A stretch of 64,000 nucleotides of DNA from Candidatus Margulisiibacteriota bacterium (GCA_041658745.1 JBAZZP010000001.1:165434-229433); one strand, 5' to 3'; shown: positions 13,864 through 64,000, counted from the first letter of the stretch. Made by a program: numbers and translations. The notes: generated from the sequence alone by a model not told the origin.

Positions 13864-14893
13864 TTTTCATTTTAATAATTTCTCTGCTTCTAGCAGACAT
13901 TCTATCTCGCAACTCCTTATTTCGCAACAAATGGATAATTCTTTCCGCGAGTATCACTGGATTGCTAACCGGCACAATATAGCCATCAGTCCCATCCTTA
14001 ACCCACAAATTATTTTCTCCGGAATCGGTAATAACAACCGGCAAGCCACAGGCCATGGCTTCGGCCGTACTGGCAGCAATGCCAGCATCAGAAAGCGAGG
14101 TCGAAACATAAAGATCAGCGGCCTGAAGATAGGCAGGCAGTTCATCATTTTTCAACATACCGATAAATCTAACGTTTTGTCCCACCATTAGCTTTCCAAC
14201 CAATGCCTTTAAGGATTGATCTAGTGAACCAGTCCCAGCCAAAACAAATGCTGCGTCCGGAAATTCTTTCAGCACAAACGGGATAGCGCCAATTAACGAA
14301 GAAACATCATAGATTGGCTCAAAACTTCTCAGACTTATTATCATTGGGGCCGCAAGGATTTTTAATTTTTCTCTCACATGACCACAGTTATTACCTACAC
14401 AAAACTTATGAGTATCAATTCCAAAATTTATAATCCGTATTTTCTTTTTACTTATTCCTAATTTCAACATGGTTTTTAACATATGCTCAGCATCACAGGT
14501 CACCAAAGCAGCTCGGGATAAAATAAATTTGAGCATTAGCTTCCTTAGCCAGTACTTAATTCCCAAAATCACATCTGACCCCCAAACGGTAATAACCTGT
14601 GGATAGCCCCATCCCGCAATTGAACCCACTACCCCATAAGTTCCAGCCGAATGGATATGAATAATATCAGGATTAATTTCTTTTATTAGCTTTCTGGTTT
14701 TTACAATGGCATGCAATACGGTTTTAATATTTACCGGAGAGGTTATAATTTCATGATAATTTGCAAATTCAATCTTACCAAAGTTTGATGGGGCTAAAGA
14801 TATCCATGACACAGCATGCCCTTTATTTGCAAAAAAATTAATCCATTTGTAACTATGAATTGAATTTGAACCGGCTAAAAAACAAATCTTCAT
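13796..14893 (-). CDS. GT4 family glycosyltransferase
   Basis: 365 aa. STSLSDAGIAASTAEAMACGLPVVITDSGEN is the classic GT4 EX7E region. Confidence 0.8.
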   Translation of the reverse strand: MKICFLAGSNSIHSYKWINFFANKGHAVSWISLAPSNFGKIEFANYHEIITSPVNIKTVLHAIVKTRKLIKEINPDIIHIHSAGTYGVVGSIAGWGYPQVITVWGSDVILGIKYWLRKLMLKFILSRAALVTCDAEHMLKTMLKLGISKKKIRIINFGIDTHKFCVGNNCGHVREKLKILAAPMIISLRSFEPIYDVSSLIGAIPFVLKEFPDAAFVLAGTGSLDQSLKALVGKLMVGQNVRFIGMLKNDELPAYLQAADLYVSTSLSDAGIAASTAEAMACGLPVVITDSGENNLWVKDGTDGYIVPVSNPVILAERIIHLLRNKELRDRMSARSREIIKMKNDYWTEMEKMDKLYEVVFSVCR

Positions 14894-16155
14894 TATTTAT
14901 CTACCTCATCGACAACCATATTATTGCTTAATTGGTTGATTAATCCAAAAGGCATAATCATTATATATAAAAGCACAATATCTAAAATCGGAGCAACCAT
15001 TAGCCAGGCAAAAGACATAAAAATGGTTAACATAAGTAATATTGAATATTTACTTCTGGAAATTAACACCTTAATAAAGGCAAAAAGAAAACACACTGTT
15101 GTAAGCAGCATACCGATCAAGCCTGTATCAATCATTAAAGCCGCAAAAGCCGTACTTCTCTGTCCTAAAATCAGTTTATGGGAATACCACCCCTCTCCCA
15201 CTAAGGCTGAAACAATGTTATTATCCAACAGAACAAAGGCTCGCTTAAAATGTGAACCACGATCTTTATCCTGTTGCCCCGAAACAGCTTCGGTAGCTTG
15301 AATGCCAACCAAAAAATAATCAGTAAATGAATATTTTGAATACACTGTTAAAGTATTATTCCAACTAACAAGTATTATCGCCATTAAAAGGATTATGAGA
15401 ATTTCGCGCAGACGAATGCGGGGAAGATAAATAAACATAAGCCCAACAACTGCCAATATAACCATTCGGGAATCATAATAAAAACCAACGATTAAAGAGA
15501 TAAATGCAACTAAAAATACTAGTAATCTTGAAAACCAATTTTTTGCATTTTCGTTATAACATAAGACGGCTGTTATTGACATCAATACTGGAAAAACGGC
15601 AGCAGCAGAACCGGACCATTCGCTTCCTTGCGGCAGAAACCTATTTATCTTAAGAACAAATTCTGAATAGAACCCGTGAAAAAAATAGGTCAACATATAT
15701 AACAATCCAGAAATGGCAGTTATCATTGCTGCTTTATTACTAGATAAAACCATAAAATAGCGATTTGAGAGGATAAAGGGCATAATTCCTAATAGAAGGT
15801 AGTAGATAACAAAACGCATCATTCGAATATCTTCACTTATTATCACTCCCCGAATGCATTGAAACACCATATAAAAAGACATTAACAAAAAGATTATTAG
15901 GTGCAATTTATCAAAATTGCTTATTTTCTCTCTGATAAATGGAATGGCTCCAATAGAAAAAGCAAAAAGAATACCAAAAAAAATACAATCAACCAAGTAT
16001 TCATCGATAAGTGCGTATCCACCCAACATAATGCCTGAACCCAAAATACAAGCTGGAATAAGCATGTACCATAACATTTTAGGTTTCATTGCTCCAACAA
16101 AAAACAAGATTGGACCAAGAATAATAAACAAAAACACCAAAAAGGAATAAACCAT
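14893..16155 (-). CDS. polytopic membrane protein, Wzy-like O-antigen polymerase/ligase candidate
   Basis: 420 aa, 10 or more predicted TM segments with a larger loop near residues 290-330. Located between the GTs and the Wzx flippase. Confidence 0.45.
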   Translation of the reverse strand: MVYSFLVFLFIILGPILFFVGAMKPKMLWYMLIPACILGSGIMLGGYALIDEYLVDCIFFGILFAFSIGAIPFIREKISNFDKLHLIIFLLMSFYMVFQCIRGVIISEDIRMMRFVIYYLLLGIMPFILSNRYFMVLSSNKAAMITAISGLLYMLTYFFHGFYSEFVLKINRFLPQGSEWSGSAAAVFPVLMSITAVLCYNENAKNWFSRLLVFLVAFISLIVGFYYDSRMVILAVVGLMFIYLPRIRLREILIILLMAIILVSWNNTLTVYSKYSFTDYFLVGIQATEAVSGQQDKDRGSHFKRAFVLLDNNIVSALVGEGWYSHKLILGQRSTAFAALMIDTGLIGMLLTTVCFLFAFIKVLISRSKYSILLMLTIFMSFAWLMVAPILDIVLLYIMIMPFGLINQLSNNMVVDEVDK

Positions 16156-36189: not shown

Positions 36190-37215
36190 TTAAGCAATCT
36201 TCTCATGAATACAATCATCAATAGAATAATGGCGACTGGCCTTTTTTTCAATAATTAAGGGCCATTGCATGGGAGATATTCCTGTCCCTGGTCTTTTTGT
36301 GGTGATATTATTTTCGGTAAAGAGTTCCCCCTTATTAATCACTTTTAAAGCAACAATACTTTTCCTAGCTATAAACATATTGTTTCTTTCCGATTTTGTA
36401 GTCTTTTTTTCATTAGATCCAAGCGCTTTTTCAATATTTCGAATCGCTTTTACCATATCATTTAACTCAATTGGATTCAAAGAAGCTTTTTGGTCTGGGC
36501 CATCCATTTTACGATCAAGTGTAAAATGTTTCTCAACAACTTTAGCCCCCAAAGCAACGGCAGCAATTGCCACTTCAATGCCCAAAGTATGGTCAGAATA
36601 ACCGACATTTACTCCGAAACGCTCTTTAATAGTTTGCATGGCATTTAAATTAACGTCTTCCATAGGAGTTGGATATTGGGTGTTACAATGCAAAAGAATA
36701 ATATTGCTTTTTTTAGTCCCCGCCTTTATTAACACTTTAAGAGCAGCCCCAATTTCTTGCATATTAGACATTCCAGTAGACAAGATTACTTTCTTTTTTA
36801 GAGAACCAATCATTTTTAGATAGGGATAATTGGTTATTTCCCCAGAGGGGATCTTAAAGATGGGAAGGCCTAGCGCCAAAAGCAACTTAACACTTTCAAG
36901 GTCAAAGGGAGTAGATAAAAATAAAATATGCCTTTTTGGGCAGTAAGCTTGCAAAATTTTAAATTCTTCATACGTTAAAACATATTGCCGTAGCATTTCT
37001 AATTGGGATTCATTACAGTTTGTATTGCGCAGCTGGTATTGGGCTTTGGGAGCCTGCCTGCTTACCATACTTTCGGGATTGAAAGTCTGGAACTTTACCG
37101 CATCAGCTCCGGCAGCCGCCGCCACATCAACCATTTTTTTAGCAACCGCAAGGCTCCCATTATGGTTTATTCCTGCTTCCGCGATAATAAAACAAGACTT
37201 TGAAGACCTTTTCAT
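36190..37215 (-). CDS. nonulosonic-acid synthase (NeuB/LegI/PseI family, with C-terminal SAF/antifreeze-like domain)
   Basis: 341 aa. FIIAEAGINHNGSL, KFQTF, KIPSGE, HCNTQYPTP, GYSDHTLG. Confidence 0.85.
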   Translation of the reverse strand: MKRSSKSCFIIAEAGINHNGSLAVAKKMVDVAAAAGADAVKFQTFNPESMVSRQAPKAQYQLRNTNCNESQLEMLRQYVLTYEEFKILQAYCPKRHILFLSTPFDLESVKLLLALGLPIFKIPSGEITNYPYLKMIGSLKKKVILSTGMSNMQEIGAALKVLIKAGTKKSNIILLHCNTQYPTPMEDVNLNAMQTIKERFGVNVGYSDHTLGIEVAIAAVALGAKVVEKHFTLDRKMDGPDQKASLNPIELNDMVKAIRNIEKALGSNEKKTTKSERNNMFIARKSIVALKVINKGELFTENNITTKRPGTGISPMQWPLIIEKKASRHYSIDDCIHEKIA

Positions 37216-37249
37216 ATTATTTAAAACAACCTTTTCCAGCTTATAATCA

Positions 37250-37984
37250 TTATATTTTTATCGGTAGCGCCTGTTTTTGGCTAACTCCTGAATTGATCGC
37301 CACTAAATCCGGTCTTTTATGCAACAATTCAACAATTTGCTTAAGGGGAAAAACTTTTCCTGGCTCATATAGCTCCTTAAATATTTGGGTTACTAATTCA
37401 AAATCATCGGCAGTATCTACCGTCAACCTGAGCTCTGGCCAACGCAGCTCTGGATCATCCACCGGCATTACCCCCCAAACAAATTTTCCAGTCATAGTAA
37501 AATAACCACCCCAAACCTCGGTATCAATTTCTTTCTTCAACTTACAGGCTTGCACCATGGCGGGATAAGAAAGCGCATATGAAAATGTGCCAAATGGCAG
37601 ATCCTCTATTTTAGTAAAATCATGCTTCTTTACTTGGTGATAACTAACCAGTTTATCAATATAAGTTGGATCAACAAAAGGATTATCGGCAGTACAACTA
37701 ATAACCGTATCTATTCCAAAATGCTCAGCCGCGCTGGTTAATCGCAGCAAAACATCATCCGGGTGGCCACGATAACAATATATCCCATTTTTCTTAGCAA
37801 CTTCTTCTAATGGGTCGTCCTGTGCAACGGTAGAAGTACAAAGGATAATTACTTCCGGTTTTTGGGCTAATTTTAACCGCTCGATCATATGCTCAATCAT
37901 TGGGCGTCCACATATTTCTTTTAGTGCCTTCACCGGCAAGCGAGTCGACTTTAAGCGGGCAGTAATTAATATCGCTTTCTTCAC
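37250..37984 (-). CDS. CMP-nonulosonate / acylneuraminate cytidylyltransferase (SpsF/PseF/LegF-like)
   Basis: 244 aa. N-terminal KKAILITARLKSTRLPVKALKEICGRPMI is the cytidylyltransferase P-loop. Confidence 0.8.
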   Translation of the reverse strand: MKKAILITARLKSTRLPVKALKEICGRPMIEHMIERLKLAQKPEVIILCTSTVAQDDPLEEVAKKNGIYCYRGHPDDVLLRLTSAAEHFGIDTVISCTADNPFVDPTYIDKLVSYHQVKKHDFTKIEDLPFGTFSYALSYPAMVQACKLKKEIDTEVWGGYFTMTGKFVWGVMPVDDPELRWPELRLTVDTADDFELVTQIFKELYEPGKVFPLKQIVELLHKRPDLVAINSGVSQKQALPIKI

Positions 37985-39000
37985 TTTACTTGCTCCTCCC
38001 GCATTAAACTATATTTTGGAATCGGCAAAAGCGTAGTTTTTCCGATTAATCTCCATTTCTGATCTGGCGGCAGTCCTAAATCATCCGCTCGCATAAAAAG
38101 TAGATCTTGCTCACCGATAATATTTCCTACAGGAATATCTCGACTAGCAACCAGACTCTTTTTGGAATATTTTCGGTATTTTATTTCTTCAGCCGAAAAT
38201 GGCTTTCTAACCGATGATCCCATAGCAATTGCAATTTCTCTCACCATTTTGGTAAATTCAGCAAATTCCTTGGGATTTAATGCTGACTCATGATCGATAC
38301 CCTTAAAAGACCGATCATGCGTTATGTGTTTTTCAATTACATTCATCCCCATTCCCAAAGCAACAGCAGGAAGATAGAAAGCCAATGGGGCCTCCGCATC
38401 ACTATGATCCTGATAGCCAACGGGCAGATTAAAAGTGTTTTTTATGGTATTCATCAATTGCATATTTAAGCTGTCGATTGGGGTCGGAAAGTTCTGATAA
38501 CCATACATTAACCAGATTGCAGATTGTGAATTATTCTTAATATATGAGATTGCAGCACTAATTTCTTCCATGGTTGAGGCACCAACACTTAGATCAATCC
38601 GTTTTCCGGTTTTGGCCACATATTCTAATAAAAAAGGATTGGAAAGGTCGGAAGAATGCAACTTATAAGCATCTACCTTTATTTTTTCGGCAAAATCAAC
38701 ACTGCTGCGCTCATAGACACAGGCAATAATATGCATTTGAGGAAATTGTTTTCGGACATAATCCGCCAATTCTATCCAATTGTCACGTGAAAGCTCAATA
38801 TTTTGTAACTTAGCAAAATCGGGGTGATGGGGAACAACCATATCTTTTAGCGACCAAATTTGAAATTGAATGGCGCTAGCTCCCGCTCGACCGGCTCCAT
38901 CAATGATTTTTTTTGCTAACTCAAGCTTGCCTTCGTGCGAACAAGCCATCTCCGCAATTACATAGACTGGTCCAAAATCTGCATTCATTTTATTATCCAT
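37981..39000 (-). CDS. second NeuB-family nonulosonic-acid synthase paralog (with SAF domain)
   Basis: 339 aa. VYVIAEMACSHEG, GYQDHSD; divergent from 36190..37215. Confidence 0.8.
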   Translation of the reverse strand: MDNKMNADFGPVYVIAEMACSHEGKLELAKKIIDGAGRAGASAIQFQIWSLKDMVVPHHPDFAKLQNIELSRDNWIELADYVRKQFPQMHIIACVYERSSVDFAEKIKVDAYKLHSSDLSNPFLLEYVAKTGKRIDLSVGASTMEEISAAISYIKNNSQSAIWLMYGYQNFPTPIDSLNMQLMNTIKNTFNLPVGYQDHSDAEAPLAFYLPAVALGMGMNVIEKHITHDRSFKGIDHESALNPKEFAEFTKMVREIAIAMGSSVRKPFSAEEIKYRKYSKKSLVASRDIPVGNIIGEQDLLFMRADDLGLPPDQKWRLIGKTTLLPIPKYSLMREEQVK

Positions 39001-52701: not shown

Positions 52702-53202
52702 TTAAAGATATTTGCCATAGATTTCATCATGCACGGGAATTATGTTTTTGGGACATCCTTTATGCCACAACCACTCATTGTTTTTGGGGGAATCAACATT
52801 GAGACAGTGTTGCTTCTCATCTAAAGGGGTCACCAACTGGCAACCATACAACAAAGAAATAAAATGACCACGATCTTTTCGCTCAAGAATTATTTCATTG
52901 ATCGCCAAAGGCAATGGAGCATATTTCACCTCGACGTTTAATTCGTTTTTGGCAACGGCAGTAATTCTTTCTTTCATAGTTTCTTTATATCTTATAATTC
53001 CACCAGGGATATGCCATCCCGGGGGTCCGTAATTATCGGCTCTCCAGGTTAACAAAGTCTCTCCCTGGGAGTTTTTTATCAACAAATCTACATTAATCAA
53101 TGGCGTTATTCTACTGACAAAATAAAACACCTCTTCCGGCAAACCTGCAGTAGGGTTAACAATGCTTTTTTCTATTTGATTAATTGCATCCCTTATTTTC
53201 AT
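52702..53202 (-). CDS. NUDIX-fold hydrolase-like protein (degenerate Nudix box; GDP-mannose mannosyl hydrolase-like)
   Basis: 166 aa. GGIIRYKETMKERITAVAKNELNV is a partial Nudix signature. Confidence 0.45.
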   Translation of the reverse strand: MKIRDAINQIEKSIVNPTAGLPEEVFYFVSRITPLINVDLLIKNSQGETLLTWRADNYGPPGWHIPGGIIRYKETMKERITAVAKNELNVEVKYAPLPLAINEIILERKDRGHFISLLYGCQLVTPLDEKQHCLNVDSPKNNEWLWHKGCPKNIIPVHDEIYGKYL

Positions 53203-54080
53203 AATAATTCTTCTTTATTGATGATTTGTTTATTTGCACTATACCAATTATATAAATCCAAAATAGCCTCATCAAGCGGAGTAAACCTAAACTTTTCTAA
53301 TTCCTTTAAAAGCTGCATATTATTTCCACTATATTCGCGGCAAGGGCTATCAGAATTATCGATTATTTCGATATCTTTTCCAGCTATTTTCTTAACAATT
53401 TTTGCCAATTCAGCCGCTTTGATCTCCAGGCCAGAACAAACATTATATACCTGTTGCAAAGGAGAATTATTAACAAACCATCTTACAATCGCAACCAAAT
53501 CGTTAATATATAAGTAATCGTAATAAGTATTTTGCCTTATCATTATTGGAAGATCAAATAACGCTGAGCAACAAGCCCTTGAAATAAACCGATAGCGCCA
53601 ATCCTCGTATTTACCAAAGACAGAAAACACCCTGAGGTTATAAATATTTTTGCTTTGCAGAGCATGCTTTGTCATAACATATTTAGAAAAACCATACTGC
53701 TCCGTAGGCACATGTTGATCATAATAACCTTCATCCATTTTTAACCGCCAATTCTCTCTCCCAAATTCTGCCCCCGAACCAAAATACAACAACTTTCCAT
53801 AATGATCATTACATCGCGCGACATTAAAAAACATTCTTAAGTTGTTTTCTAATACTTTAGCAGGATCTTTGATGGAATATTTGGGTGCCGGATCATGGGT
53901 AGCTGCATGAATAACAACGTCAAATCGGCCATTTTTTATGAGGTCTAAAACCTTATTGGAATCTAAAAGATCAAGCTCAGAATGATTGCAGGCGATTACC
54001 TCAAAATCATGACATAATTGCTCAAATAGATTACGAGCAATAAAACCTTTTCCTCCAGTAATTAATAATTTCTTCGCCAT
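53199..54080 (-). CDS. SDR-family NAD(P)-dependent sugar epimerase/reductase
   Basis: 293 aa. LLITGGKGFIARNL, YGFSKYVMT (YxxxK). Confidence 0.75.
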   Translation of the reverse strand: MAKKLLITGGKGFIARNLFEQLCHDFEVIACNHSELDLLDSNKVLDLIKNGRFDVVIHAATHDPAPKYSIKDPAKVLENNLRMFFNVARCNDHYGKLLYFGSGAEFGRENWRLKMDEGYYDQHVPTEQYGFSKYVMTKHALQSKNIYNLRVFSVFGKYEDWRYRFISRACCSALFDLPIMIRQNTYYDYLYINDLVAIVRWFVNNSPLQQVYNVCSGLEIKAAELAKIVKKIAGKDIEIIDNSDSPCREYSGNNMQLLKELEKFRFTPLDEAILDLYNWYSANKQIINKEELL

Positions 54081-54095
54081 TGGTCTCCTAGCCCC

Positions 54096-55178
54096 TTAAT
54101 GCTTAGCAATTGGGGGATGTCCCTTCAAATACTCCCCAACCAAATGCATATCACACTCATCAGAACATTTTAACCCTTTTGACAAATTAAAGTGAGCTTC
54201 CCTAAATGCTTTATATTTATCTCCATTCCAAATAGCATATAATGACTCTTCTTTTGCATTCCCCAAAATGATTTCATTATTATAATCTTCCATGCACATT
54301 ACCACTTCGGCATTAGATTTTACGGTCATAGACATCCACGGATGCTTACAGATTTCTGACCAGTGGACCGATTTTGTTCCGTGGTAGTTCTGCCGATACC
54401 ATTGCTGATCTTCACTTTTTAAATACAAATAGACATCCAAATCTTTAAAGGCAGCTTTTAGTTTTTGATATTCTTCTTCTTGCCAAGAGTTGTTTAGATC
54501 CAACATTGTAATAACAATTCTGGTGGTAAGCCCGCGCTGTTTTTTGAGATTTATAAGTTCTAATATTTTATTATAGCTTTGGGTAAAATTGGACTGATCA
54601 CCCCTAATCTCCTTATGCCTTGCGTCATCAACGCTTTCGATCGAATACTTGATATAACTCAAACCATTTTCAAACATTCTAACTGTAGTAGCAAGATCTA
54701 TATTCGCAGGATTACAACTAAAGTATGAATGAAAACCCCTCTCAGTTAGCAATTTAACATATTCGCTCATGTTTTTATCAAGCAATGGATCGCCATAACC
54801 ATGCAGTTGAATTACTTTAGGAATAATATATAAGAAAAAATTATTCTCGCTCTGCTCTTCTTTTTCAATGTTATATTGTTCTTTAACAAATTTTTCCCAG
54901 GTTGACCATTCATCCTTTGACCAGGGACGCAATTGATCAATAATATGAATAAAGGTGTCTTTATCAATTGTTTCAACTTTTCTCGTCATCCGAGTGGTTC
55001 TGGGACACATTTTACATTTCATATTACAGGCATTCGTAGTCTCTATGTTATAAACAACCGGCTCTTTTCTACGCATACCTTCAAATTGCCCGACAATGAA
55101 ATCATGATCAAAGGTTTCCCCATTCAACATCCTGTTCACCAAATCATGTGATTGCATATAAAAGTGAATATCAAACAT
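54096..55178 (-). CDS. radical SAM enzyme (second; Cys-rich C-terminus)
   Basis: 360 aa. CNMKCKMC (CxxxCxxC); C-terminal CMEDYN...C..C cluster. Confidence 0.75.
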   Translation of the reverse strand: MFDIHFYMQSHDLVNRMLNGETFDHDFIVGQFEGMRRKEPVVYNIETTNACNMKCKMCPRTTRMTRKVETIDKDTFIHIIDQLRPWSKDEWSTWEKFVKEQYNIEKEEQSENNFFLYIIPKVIQLHGYGDPLLDKNMSEYVKLLTERGFHSYFSCNPANIDLATTVRMFENGLSYIKYSIESVDDARHKEIRGDQSNFTQSYNKILELINLKKQRGLTTRIVITMLDLNNSWQEEEYQKLKAAFKDLDVYLYLKSEDQQWYRQNYHGTKSVHWSEICKHPWMSMTVKSNAEVVMCMEDYNNEIILGNAKEESLYAIWNGDKYKAFREAHFNLSKGLKCSDECDMHLVGEYLKGHPPIAKH

Positions 55179-55202
55179 TTTATACCTCCAAATATAGATA
55201 GA

Positions 55203-56171
55203 TTACTTTGTTTTAAAAGCCAATACTTTTAAGGCCAAGGAAAGCGCATTAATCCCATCTTCCAGTGAACAAAGTGGGAGCTCTTTTCCATTAACGATAG
55301 AAATAAAATGGCGCATTTCTTCAACAAACAGACTATTTCTTTCAAATTCATGGGAAGGAGAAAAATGCTCCCAATTTAATAATTTGTTCCTATAAATTGA
55401 AAGTTTACCATCCGTATTATTCCAACCGATTGTCCCCTCGGTGCCAACAATCTCTAAAGTGTGTGTGGGTGGCTTCTGCAAATAATTGAGTTGTAATACC
55501 CCTAAGGCTCCATTTGGAAAACGTAAAATAGCTTCCGCAGTATCTTCCACTGCAATGCCCAAATCCCCTCTGTTTTCAGCACAAGCCCACTCTACCGTTG
55601 GTTTACCAAGCAACCAATTTAAATAATCAAATGGATGGCACAGGGTTAAAACAACTCCCCCTCCCAAATCGGGCCTAGCGGCATAACTACTTTTATAATC
55701 TTCCCAGGGGTGCATATCCGGCAAATATTCTCCCCAACGCGCACAAATTGATACTGGCCGACCTATTTCTCCATTTAAAATTAGTTGGGAAGCAATTTTT
55801 AGTGTGGGATGAAACCTAAATTGAAAACCAACTAAGAGTTTTCCCTGGCCCTGCAGCAAAGCAGCTTGCAATTTATCGATCTTTTCAAGTGAATTAGAAA
55901 TAGGTTTCTCTAGCAAAATATGGCATCCAGCTTTGGCCGCCGGAATTGCGACATCAAGGTGCAATGCCGATGGATTGGAGATAATAAATGCATCTGGATT
56001 AAGCGCCAAGGCCGCTTCGATACTTGTTACTACCGGATATTGTTGCAACTCTTCGGCAGGTAATGAGCTCAAGTTGTTGCGCAGCAAAACAATGTCACTT
56101 TCTCCAAGCACAACCAAGTTTTTTAAATGGCGCCGACCAATTGACCCAAGTCCAGCAATAACATATTTCAT
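55203..56171 (-). CDS. Gfo/Idh/MocA family oxidoreductase
   Basis: 322 aa. VIAGLGSIGRRH, LLEKPIS. Confidence 0.8.
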   Translation of the reverse strand: MKYVIAGLGSIGRRHLKNLVVLGESDIVLLRNNLSSLPAEELQQYPVVTSIEAALALNPDAFIISNPSALHLDVAIPAAKAGCHILLEKPISNSLEKIDKLQAALLQGQGKLLVGFQFRFHPTLKIASQLILNGEIGRPVSICARWGEYLPDMHPWEDYKSSYAARPDLGGGVVLTLCHPFDYLNWLLGKPTVEWACAENRGDLGIAVEDTAEAILRFPNGALGVLQLNYLQKPPTHTLEIVGTEGTIGWNNTDGKLSIYRNKLLNWEHFSPSHEFERNSLFVEEMRHFISIVNGKELPLCSLEDGINALSLALKVLAFKTK

Positions 56172-56174
56172 ACT

Positions 56175-57983
56175 TTATTCTTCTATGGGGGGAATAATCA
56201 TGTTTGATAAAAATTCCTGGCGATCAAGGAAAGGCCAAAGGTCCTCCAATGGTTTTGAGATCATAGTCCCATCCGGTTTTTGCATGGTCATCATACTGGG
56301 AGCCCTAGGCTCGTCAGGAGGATTAATAACCTCACAAACAATTGGTCCCGGCATATTTATAACTTCCCTTATTTTTTCGGTTAATCCATTTTGATCGCTA
56401 ATTTTTAGAGTGGGCAAGCCGTATGCTTCGGCTATCTTGCAGATATCGGGCAAACCTAAACCACTACCATTATCTGCCCCAGTTAATCTCCCAAAATAGC
56501 GTAGCTGAGATGTCCTAATAGAGGAATAACCTTGATTGTTAAGTACAAAGATCTTAATCGGTAATTTGAGGCGAGCAATGGTGGCAAGTTCCTGAATATT
56601 AAATTGGATGCCACCATCGGCCTCAATACAAATTGTCCGTTTTCCACCACTAGCCAGACAAGCTCCAATACTCGCTGGCAAACCATTCCCCATCGAACCG
56701 AGGGCGGTGGTATTTAAAACCCTTTGCCCCCTTTTCGCTCTAAAAGCCAGTAGAAAGATCTCAATTCCTGCCCCCGAACTGGTAGGGATGATAATATCAT
56801 CTGAATTAAGTTCCTCCGAAAGAACATCAGTAAAAGCATAGACGCTAACCAATTTTTCTTGTAAATATTTAGGCAAAACCACTGGATACTTCGCCTTCCA
56901 CTCCCGACATCTAGCCATCCATCCATCTCGCTTATTGGGCAATAGCTTGTCGCATTGAAAAAGCATTTCTTGAATAACAGCCTTGGCATCAAAACAAATA
57001 GGAATATCAATTTTAGTCTGCATTTTACTTATTTCTGTCTGGTCAATATCCACCATAACTTTTTTTGCGGCCCTGGCAAACTTTTCATGAGAATAACCGG
57101 TGATCACAGTATCTAAACGAGCCCCAAGGCTAATTAACAAATCTGAATTTTGCAGTGCAAAATTTGCCCCACGGGGAGCAACGGGCCCGGGCCGGCCAAC
57201 CAGCAAAGGATGAGTGTCGGGCAATAAATCCAGCGCCGGCCAAGTCAGTAAAACTGGGATTTGCAATCGCTCGACCAAAGACAAAACATCATTGATCGCA
57301 TTAGATAATCGCACCCCATTTCCAATCAATAAGATTGGCCGTACCGACTCATTTAGCAATTTGAATATTTTTGCAACAGAAGCTTTCATTTCTTTTTCTT
57401 GCTCTTCATTTACCAATTCGATTTGATCAAACAAAGACAACGAATCAGTTTCAATTATGGCCGCTTGAACATCGAGCGGAATATCAAGCCAAACCGGGCC
57501 AGGTCGGCCAGTTTGTGCAAGATAAATCGCTTTTTCAAGATGATAACGGATAGAATTAGGATCCATAATGGTAACCGAGTATTTTGTGATCGATTTAATA
57601 ATTGTAACAATATCCAGCTCTTGTACCCCATTTTGCCGGACACCCAGATTGCCAATAAGGTCAGAACACTTCACTTGTCCCGAAATAAACAAACAAGGAG
57701 TAGAATCTAACCACGCCCCTGCTACTCCAGTAATTGCATTGGTTCCGCCGGGGCCGGTTGTCACCATCGCAACTCCTAAAGAATTATTAACAATTCTAGA
57801 ATACGTTTCCGCGGCCATGGCACTAGCTTGCTCATGCTGATTACAGATAAATTCAATGCCCTTCTGGTGGCCAATAGAATCGTTGAGATGCATTGCTCCT
57901 CCGCCTGGAACCATAAAAACATGCTTAACCCCATGATCCATAAGAAACTGCGCAATGTAATCAGAAAGTTTTATTTTCATCAA
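56175..57983 (-). CDS. TPP-dependent acetolactate-synthase-like enzyme (YerE-like candidate)
   Basis: 602 aa. All three AHAS domains are visible: N-terminal VKHVFMVPGGGAMHL...TTGPGGTN, a central domain, and a C-terminal TPP domain. Confidence 0.8.
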   Translation of the reverse strand: MMKIKLSDYIAQFLMDHGVKHVFMVPGGGAMHLNDSIGHQKGIEFICNQHEQASAMAAETYSRIVNNSLGVAMVTTGPGGTNAITGVAGAWLDSTPCLFISGQVKCSDLIGNLGVRQNGVQELDIVTIIKSITKYSVTIMDPNSIRYHLEKAIYLAQTGRPGPVWLDIPLDVQAAIIETDSLSLFDQIELVNEEQEKEMKASVAKIFKLLNESVRPILLIGNGVRLSNAINDVLSLVERLQIPVLLTWPALDLLPDTHPLLVGRPGPVAPRGANFALQNSDLLISLGARLDTVITGYSHEKFARAAKKVMVDIDQTEISKMQTKIDIPICFDAKAVIQEMLFQCDKLLPNKRDGWMARCREWKAKYPVVLPKYLQEKLVSVYAFTDVLSEELNSDDIIIPTSSGAGIEIFLLAFRAKRGQRVLNTTALGSMGNGLPASIGACLASGGKRTICIEADGGIQFNIQELATIARLKLPIKIFVLNNQGYSSIRTSQLRYFGRLTGADNGSGLGLPDICKIAEAYGLPTLKISDQNGLTEKIREVINMPGPIVCEVINPPDEPRAPSMMTMQKPDGTMISKPLEDLWPFLDRQEFLSNMIIPPIEE

Positions 57984-58484
57984 TTAGCCTTTTACAGACA
58001 GTAACAAATCTAATAATTCTCTTACTGCACCAGCCCCGCCAGAACGTTTGGTAACGATGTTAGATACTTTGACTATAGTTGAGTGAGCATCTTTTGGACA
58101 GACAGACAAGCCAACTATTTTTAGCGCCGGCAGATCAATAATATCATCACCTATAAAACAAATTTCGGATAAACCAAAATTATATTTTTTAGCATATTCG
58201 ATAACCGCCTTAGCCTTATCATGGCATCCCTTATAAACATCATTTATCTTCAACTTTTTTGCGTAACGAGAGACAATTGCCATCCCGGAAGGACTACTTT
58301 CACCAGAAACTAAACCAATTTTAATCCCCGCCTTCTGGGCCAGGGAAATTCCCGTCCTATCGGCAAAACAAAATCTCTTCATCTCTAAGCTATCAGAATC
58401 CAACCAAAAAGACCCATCAGTTAAAACACCATCAACGTCCATTAAAACTGCTTTTATTCTTTTTATTTCTTTTCGCACTATCAA
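57984..58484 (-). CDS. HAD-superfamily KdsC-family phosphatase (Kdo-8-P / nonulosonate-9-P phosphatase-like)
   Basis: 166 aa. LMDVDGVLTDG (DxDG), FIGDDIIDLP. Confidence 0.8.
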   Translation of the reverse strand: MIVRKEIKRIKAVLMDVDGVLTDGSFWLDSDSLEMKRFCFADRTGISLAQKAGIKIGLVSGESSPSGMAIVSRYAKKLKINDVYKGCHDKAKAVIEYAKKYNFGLSEICFIGDDIIDLPALKIVGLSVCPKDAHSTIVKVSNIVTKRSGGAGAVRELLDLLLSVKG

Positions 58485-58506
58485 GATGGCCTCCTAAATA
58501 ATAATT

Positions 58507-59376
58507 TTATACATTTCTAAGTCTTTTAATAATAGGCTCTTCACATGCCAATATTTTTTTGACTCCATTCCCCATAGATGTTTCAACCAGACGAATATCC
58601 CTAATTAATCGATTTAAGCCATTTGGTTCTAGAGAGGCGGCATGATCAGATCCCCACATAGCTCGATCCAAAGTAATATGGCGTTCTATAACACACGCTC
58701 CCATCGCCCGAGCAGCAACTGAAGAGGGTAAGCCCGTTTCGTGACCAGAATATCCAACCAAAACCTTATATCTGTTTTTTAAAAAAGGGATCAAACGCAA
58801 ATTGAGATCTTCGTATCGAGCGGGATAAGCACTGCAACAATGCAGCAAAATTAAATTGTCCTTTTGTAAAACTTCAACCGCATGATCCAGTTGTTCTAAA
58901 GATGACATGCCGGTGGATAATATTACTGTTTTACCCTGTTTTCTTACGTGTTTTAGCAAAACATCATCCGTTAATTTTGCGGCCGGGATCTTAATGCAAG
59001 GGGTGTTATATTGAGCAATAAAATCAACTGAATCAATATCCCACACCGAAACCAACCATGTAATACCAATTTCTTTGCAATACTTATTGATTTCATCATA
59101 CTCTTTCTTGCCAAATTCTATTTTATTGCGGTAATCGAAATAGGTCATATTTCCCCAGGGGGTCTCTCGCAGAATATCTCGTTGACTTAAAGGTACGCAT
59201 AATTCTGGATTGCGTTTTTGAAATTTAACGGCATTACAGCCCGCATCAGCAGCGACCGCAATCAGCTTCTTCGCAATATCTATCTCCCCATTGTGATTTA
59301 TCCCTATCTCCGCAATAAAATACGAAGGGCAATCATCACCAACTTGAACATTACCAATCTCTAAATTACTTGTCAT
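58507..59376 (-). CDS. third NeuB-family synthase paralog (short form, no SAF domain)
   Basis: 289 aa. YFIAEIGINHNGE, KFQKR, KIPAAK, GYSGHETG. Confidence 0.8.
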   Translation of the reverse strand: MTSNLEIGNVQVGDDCPSYFIAEIGINHNGEIDIAKKLIAVAADAGCNAVKFQKRNPELCVPLSQRDILRETPWGNMTYFDYRNKIEFGKKEYDEINKYCKEIGITWLVSVWDIDSVDFIAQYNTPCIKIPAAKLTDDVLLKHVRKQGKTVILSTGMSSLEQLDHAVEVLQKDNLILLHCCSAYPARYEDLNLRLIPFLKNRYKVLVGYSGHETGLPSSVAARAMGACVIERHITLDRAMWGSDHAASLEPNGLNRLIRDIRLVETSMGNGVKKILACEEPIIKRLRNV

Positions 59377-59396
59377 GCTTCCCCTCCTATAATTTG

Positions 59397-60734
59397 TTAA
59401 GCGAACTTTTTAATCGTACTTATAATAAAGTCAATCATTTTTCCTGTCATCCCGGGATAAACCCCAACCCAAAAAGTTTGATTCATTACAATATCGGTAT
59501 TTATTAATTTTCCAACAACACGAAAGCCCTTTCTTTTTTTTCTCATTTCATCAAAACAAGGATGTTTTATCATATTGCCAGCAAAGAGCATGCGGGTTTG
59601 TATCCCTTTTGATTCAAGATATTGCACAATTTGATCCCGCGTGTAGCCAGAGGATTTCTTTACCGTCAGCAAAAAACCAAACCAGCTCGGATCAGAATAT
59701 TCCGCAATCTCAGGCAAAACAAAAACATCTTGCATTTGATTGAGGCCAGATCGCAATATTTGCCAGTTTTTTTTCCTAGCTTCAACAAAAGCAGGCAGTT
59801 TTTCTAATTGAGCGCAACCAATGGCTGCCTGCAGATCGGTAGCTTTTAAATTGTATCCAAAATGCGAATAAACATATTTATGATCATAACCAAAAGGAAG
59901 TTCACCAAATTGCTGGGTAAAACGTCGTCCACAGCTATTATCTATTCCGGATGGACACCAACAGTCTCTCCCCCAATCACGCAGAGAGTTAACTATTTTA
60001 TTTAGCTGCCTATCATTAGTATAAACGGCACCACCTTCTCCCATCGTCATATGGTGAGGAGGATAAAAGCTAGAAGTTGCAACGTGGCCAAAGGTCCCAG
60101 TTTGATGCCAGCTCCCCTTATACTTATACCTAGATCCCAAAGAATCACAATTATCTTCAATTAACCAGAGGTTATGTTTATCACAAAAGTTTTTTACCGC
60201 ACTAATATCGAAAGGATTTCCCAAAGTATGGGCCAAGATAACCGCCTTGGTTTTCTTGGAAAGGGCCTTCTTTAATTGGGAACAATCAATATTATATGAG
60301 GGAAGAGAAACATCTACAAAGACCGGAATTGCTCCATATTGTACAATGGGAGCGATGGTGGTGGGGAAACCAGCCGCAACAGTTATGACTTCATCCCCTT
60401 TCTTTATCCTTTTATTTCCCAACTTAGGCGAAGTTAAAGCCATAAAAGCCAAAAGGTTAGCAGAAGAACCAGAATTTACAAGCGAACAGAACTTTATCCC
60501 CAAATACGCAGCAAATTCTTTTTCAAATCTTTCAGCATAACGACCTGTGGTCAACCAAAAATCCAGAGAAGCATCAATCAAATTGGCAATTTCTTTCTCA
60601 TCAAAAACCCTGCCGGCATATGAAATACGATCACCTGGAACAAATTCATGCTGTGTAGACAAATGTTTAAATTCATAATGGTTGATGGCTGCTTGGATAG
60701 CTTTTTTTCTTAGTACTTTATCTTTACTTTTCAT
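59397..60734 (-). CDS. rfbH: CDP-4-keto-6-deoxyglucose 3-dehydrase (E1; RfbH/DdhC-like PMP + [2Fe-2S] enzyme)
   Basis: 445 aa, DegT fold, but the PLP-lysine position reads SFYPPHHMTMGEGG (His in place of Lys). It also has DCWCPSGIDNSCG (C-x-C-x7-C iron-sulfur motif). Confidence 0.8.
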   Translation of the reverse strand: MKSKDKVLRKKAIQAAINHYEFKHLSTQHEFVPGDRISYAGRVFDEKEIANLIDASLDFWLTTGRYAERFEKEFAAYLGIKFCSLVNSGSSANLLAFMALTSPKLGNKRIKKGDEVITVAAGFPTTIAPIVQYGAIPVFVDVSLPSYNIDCSQLKKALSKKTKAVILAHTLGNPFDISAVKNFCDKHNLWLIEDNCDSLGSRYKYKGSWHQTGTFGHVATSSFYPPHHMTMGEGGAVYTNDRQLNKIVNSLRDWGRDCWCPSGIDNSCGRRFTQQFGELPFGYDHKYVYSHFGYNLKATDLQAAIGCAQLEKLPAFVEARKKNWQILRSGLNQMQDVFVLPEIAEYSDPSWFGFLLTVKKSSGYTRDQIVQYLESKGIQTRMLFAGNMIKHPCFDEMRKKRKGFRVVGKLINTDIVMNQTFWVGVYPGMTGKMIDFIISTIKKFA

Positions 60735-60773: not shown

Positions 60774-61652
60774 CTACCTCCAATATAATATTACTATTAC
60801 AGCAAACAGCCAGCCAAACATCGCACCTATTAATGGGATATCTGACAGCATCAAGTTTTCTGCGCTGCCACCCTCATCTTTTTTATAAACCAAATATAGA
60901 TAACGGAACAATCCAAAAATGACAAAAGGAACCGTATATATCAGGTTAGAAGTATTAAATTTTTGCACCGTCTCAGAGGATAATGTATAGAGAGAATAGG
61001 TTAGGATTATTGCCGCAGTAACCACAGAGATCAATTGGTCAAGATATTGAAGGTTATATTCTTGAAAAACAAGGCGATGAATAACCGCATTTTCACCTAA
61101 AACCAAAATTTCGTTCCGGCGTTTACAAAAAACAATAAACAGAGCCAGAAGAAAGGCACAGACAAGAAACCAAGGAGTAAAAACAACCCCAATTACTTCT
61201 ACCCCGGCAACCGCACGAATGACATAGCCAGCTGCAATTATAAAAGCATCAAGAATAACTATTTTTTTCAAACCAAAAGTATAACCAAGCATTATTATGA
61301 TATATGCCACAACAAGATAACAAAAGTTAACATTTAATTGATAAGAAAAAAACAAGGAAAAAGGCAAAGCCACAATAACAAACAATTTAGCGATAATCGG
61401 AGACAAGGCTCCACTAGCAAGCGGACGCAGCTTCTTAGAAGAATGCAGTTTATCATTTTGCATATCTTTCAAATCATTAATTAAATAAATACAACTGGTT
61501 ACAGCACAAAACAAGAGAAAGGCATAAACAGTATTGATGAATAAAGGCAGATTAGATAATTTTAAAGCAAATAAAATCCCGGCAAAAATGATTAGGTTTT
61601 TGAGCCATTGCTTGGGGCGTAGGGATATCCACAAATAATAAAACTGCTTCAT
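60774..61652 (-). CDS. UbiA-family prenyl-phosphate phosphoribosyltransferase (DPPR-synthase-like)
   Basis: 292 aa, about 8 TM segments. N-terminal LRPKQWLKNLIIFAG and the aspartate motif INDLKDMQNDK (NDxxDxxxD). Confidence 0.65.
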   Translation of the reverse strand: MKQFYYLWISLRPKQWLKNLIIFAGILFALKLSNLPLFINTVYAFLLFCAVTSCIYLINDLKDMQNDKLHSSKKLRPLASGALSPIIAKLFVIVALPFSLFFSYQLNVNFCYLVVAYIIIMLGYTFGLKKIVILDAFIIAAGYVIRAVAGVEVIGVVFTPWFLVCAFLLALFIVFCKRRNEILVLGENAVIHRLVFQEYNLQYLDQLISVVTAAIILTYSLYTLSSETVQKFNTSNLIYTVPFVIFGLFRYLYLVYKKDEGGSAENLMLSDIPLIGAMFGWLFAVIVILYWR

Positions 61653-62707
61653 TGCATGTAATCCTTAATTTGACCGATACAAACCTCTCGCAAATCCTGC
61701 CTATTTTTGTATGCTAGTGTCCAGTCCATCACTTTTTGCAAGGCCATATCAAGATCCCACTGCGGTTTCCAACCTAGTTCTTTTTTGGCCTTGGCAATAT
61801 TTAAACGCAAATAATGGGTTTCGTGCGGATGTTTTCCACGGTCAATAGCATACGAAGCTCCCTGCCCCCATTTTTGGCAGAGTCGCTTTACAATCCAATC
61901 AACCGTCTTAGCATCACTTTTTTCCGGACCAAAGTTCCAGGCACCTGCATATTTCTCCCCATCAAGACAAAGTTTTTGCGCCAATAATAGATAGCCCGTT
62001 AATGGTTCTAACACATGCTGCCAGGGACGAACCGCTTTGGGACAGCGAACCATAATTTTTTCGTTTTTCAAAATCGCCCGCACAAAATCGGGAATTAAGC
62101 GATCGGCCGCCCAATCTCCACCCCCAATAACGTTACCGGCTCGAGCCGTAGCCACTGCCACCCTAGGGCTCAAAAAGGAACGGCGATAAGCCGCGGTAAC
62201 TATTTCACTGCAAGCCTTACTGCTGGAATACGGATCATAACCACCCAGTGGATCCCCCTCCAAATAACCCTGCCCCCTACTCCCTATCCCCTTCACCTCG
62301 TAACATTTATCCGTAGTAATATTGACAATGGCTTTTACCGCTTTGCAGCTGCGGGCCGCCTCTAACAAATTAACGGTTCCAAGAACATTGATTGTGTAGG
62401 TTTCAACCGGATTCTTGTATGATTCTCTAACCAGCGGCTGGGCAGCCATATGGATTATGATTTCTGGTTTTGCTTTGTGTATTACTTTTATTAGGTTGTC
62501 GCTATCTCGAATATCACCGATATGTGAATCAACCAGTTGGTCGACCCGACAGAGCTTAAAAAGGCTTGGGCTAGTGGGCGGATTCAAGGCATACCCCGTA
62601 ACTTCAGCTCCCAAATAATTTAGATAAATTGAGAGCCAGGTGCCTTTAAATCCGGTCTGTCCGGTAATAAATACCTTGCGGCCCTTCCAAAAACTACTTT
62701 TTTTCAA
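61649..62707 (-). CDS. rfbG: CDP-glucose 4,6-dehydratase
   Basis: 352 aa. FWKGRKVFITGQTGFKGTWL, HMAAQPLV, YSSSKACSE, RAGNVIGGGDWAADRLIPD. Near-collinear with enterobacterial RfbG. Confidence 0.9.
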   Translation of the reverse strand: MKKSSFWKGRKVFITGQTGFKGTWLSIYLNYLGAEVTGYALNPPTSPSLFKLCRVDQLVDSHIGDIRDSDNLIKVIHKAKPEIIIHMAAQPLVRESYKNPVETYTINVLGTVNLLEAARSCKAVKAIVNITTDKCYEVKGIGSRGQGYLEGDPLGGYDPYSSSKACSEIVTAAYRRSFLSPRVAVATARAGNVIGGGDWAADRLIPDFVRAILKNEKIMVRCPKAVRPWQHVLEPLTGYLLLAQKLCLDGEKYAGAWNFGPEKSDAKTVDWIVKRLCQKWGQGASYAIDRGKHPHETHYLRLNIAKAKKELGWKPQWDLDMALQKVMDWTLAYKNRQDLREVCIGQIKDYMQ

Positions 62708-63947
62708 TACGAGACCTCTTTACATATTTCTTAATACTATTATCTGGGCTTTTCCCAATAAAGGTATAGTCCGAACGTAAATATTGTTCAATTTCTGGAT
62801 GATCATAAGCCACATCATAAAAAACAATAGTTCCACTCGGGGAATTTTTAATAAATGCAATTAATTGATTGAAATCCTTTTTAAACATAAGCTCCTGGGG
62901 ACCTGGCATATTTACAGGATAAGACTTGCCTGCCGCTAAAGAATATATTCCTGAGTGCATTGAAATAATCAACACCATATTAATTGATCTATAATCCTTT
63001 GAAATAAAATTAACATTCTTGATTATTGCCGAATTAGGCTGGATAACGCTAAGCTTCCAACGCTGATAAATGACATTATATGCAAAGGGCAAGGAGGAAA
63101 CGCAAAACAACAGGGAAAAAATAAGCCCAAAACTAATGCAATAGTTAAACAGTTGATAGATTGAGTTTTTATTTTGTTTTAGATATTCATTTAGCTGATC
63201 TAGATAAATGATTAGCAATAATATGGCCGGATAGGAAACAGTCACCAGAACAAAATCATGACTTCGTCCTTGATAGTATACAAATATCCCAAATCCCACA
63301 AAAGACACAAATTGAATCAACATGCTTTTTTCATTTGCTTGACGATCGATTAATGCTTTTATGCCTAGAAAAGCACCAATTAAATAAAGAAAATAAACAA
63401 TTATCCAAGGATGAAAGAACTTCATTGGGATCATCTTATAACCATAAGAATAATATGCCTGCTGGTAAATAAAATTAGACGCATAATTGGGAATGTTCCC
63501 GCTAAATGAAAAAATATACAGTGAATATAATGTTAATACGCCTATAAAAAAAGCCAGAGCAACCATAAGATGCTTCAACACAAGCCAATAGTTTCGAGTT
63601 AGCAAAGATTGATAAATCAATAGTATTATCCAAGATAATAAAACTACAATTCCGGTATCAAAATTCCAGAATAGGGCTATTGTTGCAACAAAAAAAGATA
63701 GATAATAAATTAATTTGCTTTTACTTGATATATACCTGCCTGCCAAATAACAAATACAAGCAGGGAAAAAGAACCTTATAGGAAAATACTGAAAATAGCA
63801 GTCATGATTGTTCGAATATATACGTGAAAATAGATAGCACCAAAAAACAATTACCACATATCCAGCAGAGGCGATAAGCTTATCATTAATATATTCTTTG
63901 ATAAACAAGTAAAGAAAGACCAACGACAACAACATTATAATAGACAT
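62694..63947 (-). CDS. polytopic integral membrane protein (candidate GT-C glycosyltransferase or polymerase)
   Basis: 417 aa, about 11 hydrophobic segments. TAATG overlap with an upstream partial gene at the window edge. Confidence 0.35.
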   Translation of the reverse strand: MSIIMLLSLVFLYLFIKEYINDKLIASAGYVVIVFWCYLFSRIYSNNHDCYFQYFPIRFFFPACICYLAGRYISSKSKLIYYLSFFVATIALFWNFDTGIVVLLSWIILLIYQSLLTRNYWLVLKHLMVALAFFIGVLTLYSLYIFSFSGNIPNYASNFIYQQAYYSYGYKMIPMKFFHPWIIVYFLYLIGAFLGIKALIDRQANEKSMLIQFVSFVGFGIFVYYQGRSHDFVLVTVSYPAILLLIIYLDQLNEYLKQNKNSIYQLFNYCISFGLIFSLLFCVSSLPFAYNVIYQRWKLSVIQPNSAIIKNVNFISKDYRSINMVLIISMHSGIYSLAAGKSYPVNMPGPQELMFKKDFNQLIAFIKNSPSGTIVFYDVAYDHPEIEQYLRSDYTFIGKSPDNSIKKYVKRSRIEKK

Positions 63948-64000
63948 TACAATGGTGAATTTAAGGACAGATAAGCCAATAACCCAAAATATCGGCTTTA

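Follow-up and report, generated by a model that had tools for sequence, protein, structure and literature searches.

The decaprenyl-phospho-arabinose pathway of mycobacteria comprises Rv3806c, Rv3807c, DprE1/DprE2, Rv3789 and the Emb/Aft GT-C enzymes, and the pilin D-arabinofuranosylation system of Pseudomonas aeruginosa Pa5196/PA7 has a PPPRS, DprE1/E2 homologs and TfpW. Gtr-type systems, with GtrA, GtrB and a GT-C enzyme, are known from Shigella/Salmonella phages, and related proteins are Synechocystis GtrB (5EKP) and CsbB/GtcA/YfhO in Firmicutes. Here we describe a stretch of 64,000 nt (the window) from a metagenome-assembled genome (MAG) of Candidatus Margulisiibacteriota (GCA_041658745.1, JBAZZP010000001.1:165434-229433), in which a 292-aa UbiA-superfamily homolog of PPPRS/DPPR synthases and a polytopic membrane protein, named TM660 here, are encoded inside a glycan super-operon exceeding 70 kb. 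We hold it probable (about 0.6) that this operon has parts of two lipid-linked donor routes for extracytoplasmic glycosylation, and that the TM660 family works in the second of them, the one fed by a CDP-sugar.

Systems in which a UbiA-type synthase, a flippase and a GT-C enzyme add pentofuranose outside the membrane form a three-component type (PMC11127046). In the Citrobacter youngae O1/O2 system, ORF15 is a PPPRS with phosphatase, ORF14 a MATE flippase and ORF12 a GT-C enzyme (GT136), with or without the ORF13 epimerase (Kelly et al., PNAS 2024, PMC11127046). As in C. youngae, a UbiA-type PPPRS with the N-D-x-x-D-x-x-x-D loop is found here in a surface-glycan locus together with GT-C-fold proteins and candidate flippases. 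Unlike C. youngae, there is no fused HAD phosphoribose-phosphatase domain, the nearest flippase candidate belongs to the GtrA family instead of being a dedicated MATE protein (no MATE flippase gene lies beside the PPPRS gene), the GT-C proteins do not match described families in a comparison that had GT136 and TfpW outside it and do not co-vary with the PPPRS, and the host is an uncultured member of Margulisiibacteriota.

With the mycobacterial pathway the locus shares a GtrA-family protein, as is Rv3789 in M. tuberculosis, as well as 10 of the 12 ligands of Rv3806c and AftA/AftB among the structural matches of TM660. It differs in that no DprE1, DprE2 or PAP2 gene is found in the window or in 7.6 kb upstream, that Gln135 is replaced by Met, and that the glycan context is an O-antigen- or capsule-like operon and not arabinogalactan. 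Like Pa5196/PA7, it has a stand-alone PPPRS with no fused phosphatase, in a Gram-negative-type cell and with a GT-C transferase alongside; unlike it, there are neither epimerase genes nor a pilin context.

The resemblance to Gtr-type systems lies in a GT2 protein (GT2_309) that aligns with GtrB, a PF04138 GtrA protein, and the GT-C-fold TM660 and a 465-aa protein beside them, such genes being contiguous in the metagenome loci L110 and L141. The differences are that the linked sugar genes point to a CDP-activated acyl-branched 3,6-dideoxyhexose in place of UDP-glucose, that TM660 belongs to a Pfam-orphan GT-C family, and that the set includes a further membrane partner of 338 aa, which is fused to GtrA in L173. 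Acyl-branched-sugar clusters are described for yersiniose (YerE/YerF), erwiniose (ErwE/F/I/J), caryophyllose (MMAR_2331-2333) and gastriose (MyGE), and contain a thiamine-diphosphate (ThDP) enzyme of the YerE/ErwE/MyGE type, an alpha-keto acid supplied by an aldolase and a branch-reducing short-chain dehydrogenase/reductase (SDR) (PMC9306805). Our locus has, as those clusters do, genes for CDP-4-keto-3,6-dideoxyglucose, a ThDP carboligase and a reductase, but its candidate supplier of the alpha-keto acid is a NeuB-like plus KdsC-like pair instead of a class II aldolase, and a lipid-linked donor with a GT-C enzyme appears to serve for delivery in place of a Leloir transferase.

The three-component concept for pentofuranose is already described (PMC11127046), so the locus is a taxonomically remote new instance and not a new mechanism. 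What sets it apart is the lack of a fused phosphatase, the GtrA-type flippase candidate, the orphan GT-C families and the embedding of the synthase in a Gtr-type module for CDP-branched sugars.

The UbiA homolog and its predicted product

A 292-aa open reading frame (ORF) with an RPKQWLKNL block and an NDxxDxxxD motif, reported in the preliminary description of this DNA, is present as described, with the block at residues 12-20 and the loop at N59-D60-x-x-D63-x-x-x-D67. The protein matches Pfam UbiA (PF01040) with an E-value of 2e-20 and the NCBIfam model NF008977 (decaprenyl-phosphate phosphoribosyltransferase) with 1e-76 and 258.2 bits, the curated cut-off being 234; two further DPPR-synthase models stay under their cut-offs (195 vs 207 and 142 vs 474 bits). 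Named polyprenyltransferase models (UbiA-like, 4-hydroxybenzoate) give 6e-08 to 9e-04. In the PDB search, the sole solved relative was 8j8j, M. tuberculosis Rv3806c (E-value 1e-31; 27.8% identity over 270 aligned residues), and the NCBI entry for the identical protein in a Candidatus Margulisiibacteriota MAG bears the name decaprenyl-phosphate phosphoribosyltransferase.

For the ligand comparison, Rv3806c was aligned with the 120 best homologs, with residue roles taken from PMC10994848. The 292-aa protein keeps 10 of the 12 ligands of phosphoribosyl pyrophosphate (PRPP), Mg and pyrophosphate: R22, K28, Y70, N73, D77, K87, R90, Y138, K143 and Y157 of Rv3806c correspond to R12, K18, Y56, N59, D63, K73, R76, Y124, K129 and Y143. 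Among these are the 5'-phosphate ligands (K18, Y56, Y143) and the Lys/Arg cluster for pyrophosphate (R12, K73, R76, K129) together with Y124, and the Mg/diphosphate loop N73, D74, D77, D81 is found as N59, D60, D63, D67. The equivalents of R22, K28, Y70, N73, D74, D77, D81, K87, R90 and Y138 are invariant in 120/120 homologs. The K143 position has Lys or Arg in PPPRS homologs, K208 is replaced by Leu194 at a position that varies across the family, and at Y157, where our protein has Tyr, most of the family has Phe, which occurs in some mycobacteria too (PMC10994848). At the Gln135 position the family is split between Met and Gln, and this could mark a difference in substrate handling.

Since the phosphoribose-binding residues of Rv3806c are absent from other UbiA enzymes (PMC10994848), their conservation is the best available argument for PRPP as substrate. 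Neighbouring genes offer two independent functional links that support the PPPRS identity. DprE1 and DprE2 homologs flank the PPPRS gene in 3 of the 80 loci sampled around UbiA homologs (L035, Rokubacteria; L042, Gemmatimonadaceae; L067, Terriglobia), and in the Saganbacteria locus L171 a 60%-identical ortholog lies between two PMT_2 (GT-C) genes. On its profiles and ligands, the gene is a genuine PPPRS/DPPR-synthase homolog, of the DPPR-synthase-like and not of the quinone or chlorophyll type, as had been proposed, and its enzyme very probably puts ribose phosphate on a membrane lipid carrier.

The family is very large (6,623 matches at E < 1e-10), and most relatives have neither epimerase nor GT-C neighbours. 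DUF362 proteins are the neighbours met most often (19 of 70 analysable loci). DUF362 (PF04015, about 360 aa) is encoded directly downstream of the PPPRS-like gene, for instance at L036:6201-7289 and in L043, L054 and L071, and also in Saganbacteria (L171:10898-11980); none was found in our window. It belongs to the same Pfam clan as the LarA nickel-pincer racemases/epimerases (PMC11770544).

Epimerases were searched by tblastn with DprE1 and DprE2 queries validated against PDB (1058 and 546 bits). DNA upstream of the operon part in the window (L001:1-7652, 7.6 kb) came from a Logan contig that matches the window over 13,227 nt with 0 mismatches. Neither gene was found in the window, in L001-L005 of this genome, which cover the window and about 18 kb outside its two ends together, in L170 or in L171; as a positive control, the same queries recover both genes in L035, L042 and L067. 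FAD_binding_4, ALO and PAP2 domains are all missing from the Pfam results for the genes called in the window and the 7.6 kb upstream. The two genes had been described as lacking in the window, which holds, and as perhaps lying upstream, where the 7.6 kb contain none. Arabinofuranose is therefore unsupported, and ribofuranose becomes the default product. This follows the prediction made with the C. youngae system, in which a PPPRS without epimerase gives ribofuranose and an SDR epimerase would give xylofuranose (PMC11127046); xylofuranose through one of the many SDRs of the operon is possible. Of the polyprenyl-phospho-pentose donor route suggested earlier, the PPPRS synthase stands, and arabinofuranose and the pairing with TM660 do not.

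TM660 and its neighbours in other genomes

Positions 60774-64000 hold three genes, for the UbiA homolog, a CDP-glucose 4,6-dehydratase and the membrane protein. The latter had been described as a 417-aa product adjacent to the UbiA homolog, and neither point is correct: the 352-aa dehydratase gene stands between them, and the protein has 660 aa, with its N-terminus past the window end. The length of 417 aa is an effect of the window edge, the reading frame being open to base 63998, and a look-up of the exact 417-aa product gave no match because the ORF is cut there. The complete gene lies at L001:6977-8959 with its start 676 nt past the window end, and the product is named hypothetical by NCBI. 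The stop of the dehydratase gene and the start of the UbiA homolog overlap (ATGA), and the TTG start of the dehydratase gene is 14 nt ahead of the TM660 stop codon; the TM660, rfbG and UbiA-homolog genes are translationally coupled.

No Pfam or NCBIfam match was found for TM660 at E <= 1, no GT-C model recognized any of 35 family members (0/35), and the family profile found no chain in PDB. Significant profile matches are also lacking to PMT_2/GT39, ArnT/GT83, Emb/GT53, YfhO and the like, with GT136 and TfpW outside the comparison, and hhalign gives a probability of 1.6% against the PMT_2-like 465-aa family of the same operon. It is a small family, for which 5.8 billion proteins yielded 36 clusters, and a few members have C-terminal Laminin_G_3 or TPR additions. 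An AlphaFold2 model built from the family alignment is confident (pLDDT 88.8, pTM 0.90) and shows a GT-C fold; AftA and AftB are among the structures that match it well. GT-C enzymes have catalytic acidic residues in the first loop after transmembrane helix 1 (TM1), and the post-TM1 loop of TM660 contains a conserved P-E-P-x-E-R motif (E59 in 24/35 members, E62 in 28/35). Judged by the model, TM660 belongs with the GT-C-fold enzymes instead of the Wzy polymerases or O-antigen ligases, in agreement with its earlier designation as a GT-C candidate. The profile comparison with GT-C families (GT53, GT83) that had been proposed at that time is answered in part: the fold is supported by the model, and a match to a sequence family is not.

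Pairing of the two proteins was examined in two samples of 80 loci each, one from genomes, centred on UbiA homologs, and one from metagenomes, centred on TM660 homologs; flanks reach at least 8 kb in 59/80 and 42/80, respectively. The MAG described here is not part of the genome sample. No UbiA homolog was found in the 80 TM660 loci, even at E < 1, and no TM660 homolog in the 80 PPPRS loci. What recurs around TM660 are orthologs of RfbF/G/H, the ThDP enzyme or GT2_309, found in 13 of the 42 loci whose flanks reach 8 kb or more. GT2_309 orthologs (56-69% identity) are present in 7 TM660 loci, ThDP-enzyme orthologs (38-49%) in 10 and RfbF in 9; RfbH orthologs (52-77%) adjoin TM660 homologs in L093, L099, L104, L106, L107 and L110, and one adjoins the UbiA homolog in L170. 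Orthologs of the 293-aa SDR are present in 5 TM660 loci, and such orthologs adjoin the ThDP gene in L099, L107, L110, L118 and L174; NeuB-like genes recur in the TM660/ThDP loci L099, L118 and L141. GT2_309, GtrA and TM660 are contiguous in this order in L110, and L141 has the order ThDP, a 172-aa ORF, GT2_309, TM660. When neighbours of TM660 were clustered without bias, GT2 came second after a broad SDR cluster, with 24/80 loci.

Because GtrB-like GT2, GtrA and CDP-hexose genes recur in this way, TM660 reads at the family level as the GT-C member of a three-component system of the Gtr type that is linked with CDP-hexose genes. Other genomes indicate that PPPRS and TM660 are not a dedicated pair, and the earlier idea of a membrane protein dedicated to the UbiA-made lipid-pentose is not supported, given the lack of co-occurrence in both directions and the company the family keeps (GtrB-like GT2, GtrA and CDP-hexose/ThDP genes).

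Some TM660 homologs lie outside glycan loci, adjoining glycerophosphodiester phosphodiesterase (GDPD) and patatin genes (L008:10001-12869, L006:10001-17473), and in L006 the rfbF/G/H trio are the sole other sugar genes. There, a lipid or a polymer akin to teichoic acid might be the acceptor.

The Gtr components of our operon are upstream of the window end. GT2_309 (L001:2365-3294, about 4.4 kb away) aligns end to end with Synechocystis GtrB (PDB 5EKP; E-value 1e-50) and also matches ArnC (1e-25); it is followed by a GtrA-family gene (PF04138, 9e-19) about 4 kb from the window end. A divergent pair at L001:3698-6113, 2.6-4.0 kb from the window end, encodes the 465-aa polytopic protein and the 338-aa membrane protein. 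In the 465-aa family, 13 of 28 members match PMT_2. The pair recurs with GT2_309 and GtrA in L170, L173 and L174/L175, and a UbiA homolog accompanies the 465-aa set in L001 and L170, with none in L173 and L174 (2/4 contexts), so the pair is weakened as a UbiA-specific partner. In L170 the order is GT2_309, a divergent pair of 488 aa and 336 aa, GtrA and UbiA; the GtrA stop overlaps the UbiA start, the UbiA ortholog is 64% identical to ours, and the 488-aa protein is the sole GT-C seen. A 502-aa fusion of a GtrA-family domain with a homolog of the 338-aa protein is encoded at L173:8493-10001, directly upstream of a PMT_2-like GT-C gene, and suggests that the 338-aa protein works physically with flippase and GT-C.

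The super-operon has at least 3 GT-C proteins and at least 2 lipid-donor synthases. Candidates for the GT-C that uses the ribose donor are TM660, the PMT_2-like 465-aa protein with its 338-aa partner, and a 690-aa GT-C protein of the window. A further protein, of 420 aa (14893-16155, minus strand), has about 12 TM helices, lacks a Pfam match and is possibly a Wzy-type polymerase; homologs of it and of the 690-aa protein were found in none of the fetched loci.

Gene content of the operon

All window genes are on the minus strand, with a GC content of about 38%. Upstream, mraY (TIGR00445, 252 bits) lies at L001:52-849, about 6.8 kb from the window end, and the glycan operon begins right after it, with a Wzx/MOP-family flippase gene 5.3 kb from the window end. 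Genes of the window discussed here are listed in Table 1.

Table 1. Positions of the genes discussed, counted from the first base of the window.
Feature	Position	Strand	Remarks
UbiA-superfamily PPPRS/DPPR-synthase homolog, 292 aa	60774-61652	-	about 9 TM helices; no fused phosphatase domain
CDP-glucose 4,6-dehydratase (RfbG type), 352 aa	61649-62707	-	TIGR02622, 478 bits vs cut-off 278
TM660, C-terminal 435 codons of a GT-C-fold protein of 660 aa (model)	62694-64000	-	N-terminal 225 codons outside the window
RfbH-type CDP-6-deoxy-4-keto-hexose 3-dehydrase, 445 aa	59397-60734	-	NF011936, 729.9 bits vs cut-off 423
NeuB-family phosphoenolpyruvate-condensing synthase, 289 aa	58507-59376	-	PF03102, E-value 5e-79; under NeuB and PseI equivalog cut-offs
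KdsC/YrbI-type HAD sugar-acid phosphatase, 166 aa	57984-58484	-	TIGR01670, 134.7 bits vs cut-off 107
ThDP-dependent carboligase (YerE/ErwE/MyGE-like), 602 aa	56175-57983	-	TPP_enzyme_N, _M and _C domains
GFO/IDH/MocA oxidoreductase of the branched-sugar module, 322 aa	55203-56171	-	Pfam matches; ortholog in TM660 locus L118
SDR, candidate YerF-like side-chain reductase, 293 aa	53199-54080	-	Pfam Epimerase and RmlD_sub_bind
Second GT-C-fold protein of the window, 690 aa	21011-23083	-	no Pfam match; possible user of a lipid-linked donor

RfbF, RfbG and RfbH form an established pathway to CDP-4-keto-3,6-dideoxyglucose, and RfbF is recognized here by TIGR02623 (325 bits). No E3-type reductase of the RfbI/AscD type (Fer2, FAD_binding_6, NAD_binding_1) is present in the Pfam annotation of the genes called in the window and L001:1-7652. 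The 602-aa ThDP enzyme stays under every acetolactate-synthase cut-off and sits in the position that YerE, ErwE and MyGE have in acyl-branched-sugar clusters, by analogy with which its role is assigned (PMC9306805). The NeuB-like and KdsC-like pair probably supplies it with a longer hydroxylated alpha-keto acid; in L170, an aldolase and acetaldehyde-dehydrogenase pair of the ErwI/ErwJ type is found. The genes at 53199-60734 (RfbH, NeuB-like, KdsC-like, ThDP enzyme, GFO oxidoreductase, a radical-SAM/SPASM protein and SDR) have the look of a route to a 3,6-dideoxyhexose whose acyl branch is long and hydroxylated, and NeuB/KdsC would take the place of the aldolase in it.

The KdsC-like HAD protein is encoded three genes downstream of the PPPRS gene and has no homolog in L170, which has the UbiA ortholog. 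It was set aside as the 5-phosphatase of the PPPRS product, being a weak candidate that adjoins the NeuB-like synthase and is missing from L170; its most likely pairing with the NeuB-like synthase would account for it without a ribose pathway.

The 289-aa NeuB-like synthase lacks about 40-50 residues in comparison with the two further NeuB-family proteins of the window (341 and 339 aa), whose genes flank a CMP-sugar-acid cytidylyltransferase gene (CTP_transf_3) at 36190-39000. With three NeuB-family genes in the operon, more than one ulosonic acid is probably made.

Two proposed donor routes and their alternatives

In the first of the two routes, which we draw from residue conservation, the UbiA enzyme would move 5-phosphoribosyl from PRPP to polyprenyl phosphate at the cytoplasmic face, with Mg held through N59 and D63, and a phosphatase would then remove the 5-phosphate to give polyprenyl-P-ribofuranose. 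The second is drawn from recurrent gene neighbourhoods. The rfbF/G/H products would make CDP-4-keto-3,6-dideoxyglucose, the YerE-like ThDP enzyme would add an acyl branch from an alpha-keto acid that probably comes from the NeuB-like/KdsC-like pair, and reductases would complete the sugar. The GtrB-like GT2_309 would load it onto polyprenyl phosphate, the GtrA-family protein would flip the lipid-linked sugar, and a GT-C enzyme would then transfer it to the glycan outside the membrane.

Several points weigh against this picture. All activities are assigned by comparison of sequences and models, and GtrB-type enzymes are known with UDP-sugars, so the use of a CDP-sugar by GT2_309 is proposed by analogy. 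About 72 kb of the genome have been seen, and epimerase genes may be elsewhere. No candidate for the phosphoribose 5-phosphatase was found as a fused HAD domain (the 292 aa are all UbiA) or as a PAP2 gene in the Pfam lists. Only 9 of the 70 analysable PPPRS loci have a large polytopic or GT-C-like neighbour. The ribose-O3 ligand Gln135 is replaced by Met121, as in 61/120 members of the family, with Gln in 48/120; the Q135A variant of Rv3806c has 30% of the activity left (PMC10994848). Moreover, TM660 and the UbiA homolog are here an extra GT-C and an extra donor synthase with respect to UbiA-less relatives such as L174. This count, with the local coupling, leaves room for a partnership of the two in this organism: as to the GT-C for the ribose donor, local arguments favour TM660 and comparative ones disfavour it.

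Such a partnership, made a dedicated route in which TM660 uses the lipid-pentose and upstream DprE1/DprE2 turn ribose into arabinose, seems unlikely to us. The two genes are one gene apart in a coupled trio, the fold of TM660 has AftA/AftB among its good matches, and the GtrB/GtrA/338-aa/465-aa set looks self-sufficient, as in L174, with UbiA and TM660 left over. Yet the two families never meet in the 80 loci of either sample, the epimerase queries that succeed in three other loci find nothing in the window and the 7.6 kb upstream, and L170, with its close UbiA ortholog, has no TM660 in 20 kb and is not among the contigs with TM660 metagenome matches. We give equally little credence to the ribose donor being flipped by the GtrA-family protein and used by the 465-aa GT-C with its 338-aa partner. 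The overlap of GtrA and UbiA in L170, where the 488-aa protein is the only GT-C seen, the PMT_2 matches of the family and the PMT_2 genes on both sides of UbiA in L171 are in its favour, but the same set occurs without any UbiA in L173 and L174/L175, and the fusion of the 338-aa protein with GtrA in L173 ties it to the GtrB route.

A little less likely again is that the PPPRS product serves no local GT-C and has a housekeeping function in the envelope or an enzyme encoded elsewhere. The size of the family, the rarity of large polytopic neighbours and the prevalence of DUF362 agree with this, whereas in the three closest contexts (this locus, L170 and L171) the gene is part of glycan loci that also encode GT-C enzymes. 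Two further readings are hardly credible. An ordinary aromatic or quinone prenyltransferase (UbiA/MenA/chlorophyll-synthase type), in the operon by chance, would fit the Pfam family and the automatic JGI name of many homologs (4-hydroxybenzoate polyprenyltransferase); against it are the far better score with the DPPR-synthase model, the preserved ligands K28, Y70 and Y157, which are specific to phosphoribose (PMC10994848), the relatives with DprE1/E2 neighbours and the position among translationally coupled sugar genes. TM660 as Wzy polymerase or O-antigen ligase would suit a large polytopic protein without Pfam match in an O-antigen- or capsule-like operon, but not its model nor its pairing with GtrB-like and GtrA genes.

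Beyond the two-route reading, we offer a more tentative proposal, which is possible but short of probable: TM660 would found an unrecognised GT-C family that uses a polyprenyl-P-linked acyl-branched 3,6-dideoxyhexose (yersiniose-, caryophyllose- or gastriose-like) made by GtrB from a CDP-sugar, combined here with a PRPP-fed lipid-ribofuranose donor. A linked lead is DUF362 as a possible lipid-pentose epimerase independent of DprE1/E2. The literature search found no paper that links the orphan TM660 family with CDP-derived acyl-branched sugars, and this family and that link are the most interesting remainder of the analysis.

Experimental descriptions of the route from PRPP to lipid-linked ribose date only from 2024 in the case of enterobacterial O antigens (PMC11127046) and from earlier years in that of mycobacterial arabinan. 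If our reading is true, the route extends to Margulisiibacteriota, an uncultured lineage that is sister to Cyanobacteria. The analysis also points out two Pfam-orphan GT-C families together with a recurrent module, and the outcome is a set of bioinformatic markers and testable enzyme pairs and not a change of paradigm. The module suggests that CDP-derived acyl-branched sugars can be delivered via lipid-linked donors, which would widen the range of donors of Gtr-type systems.

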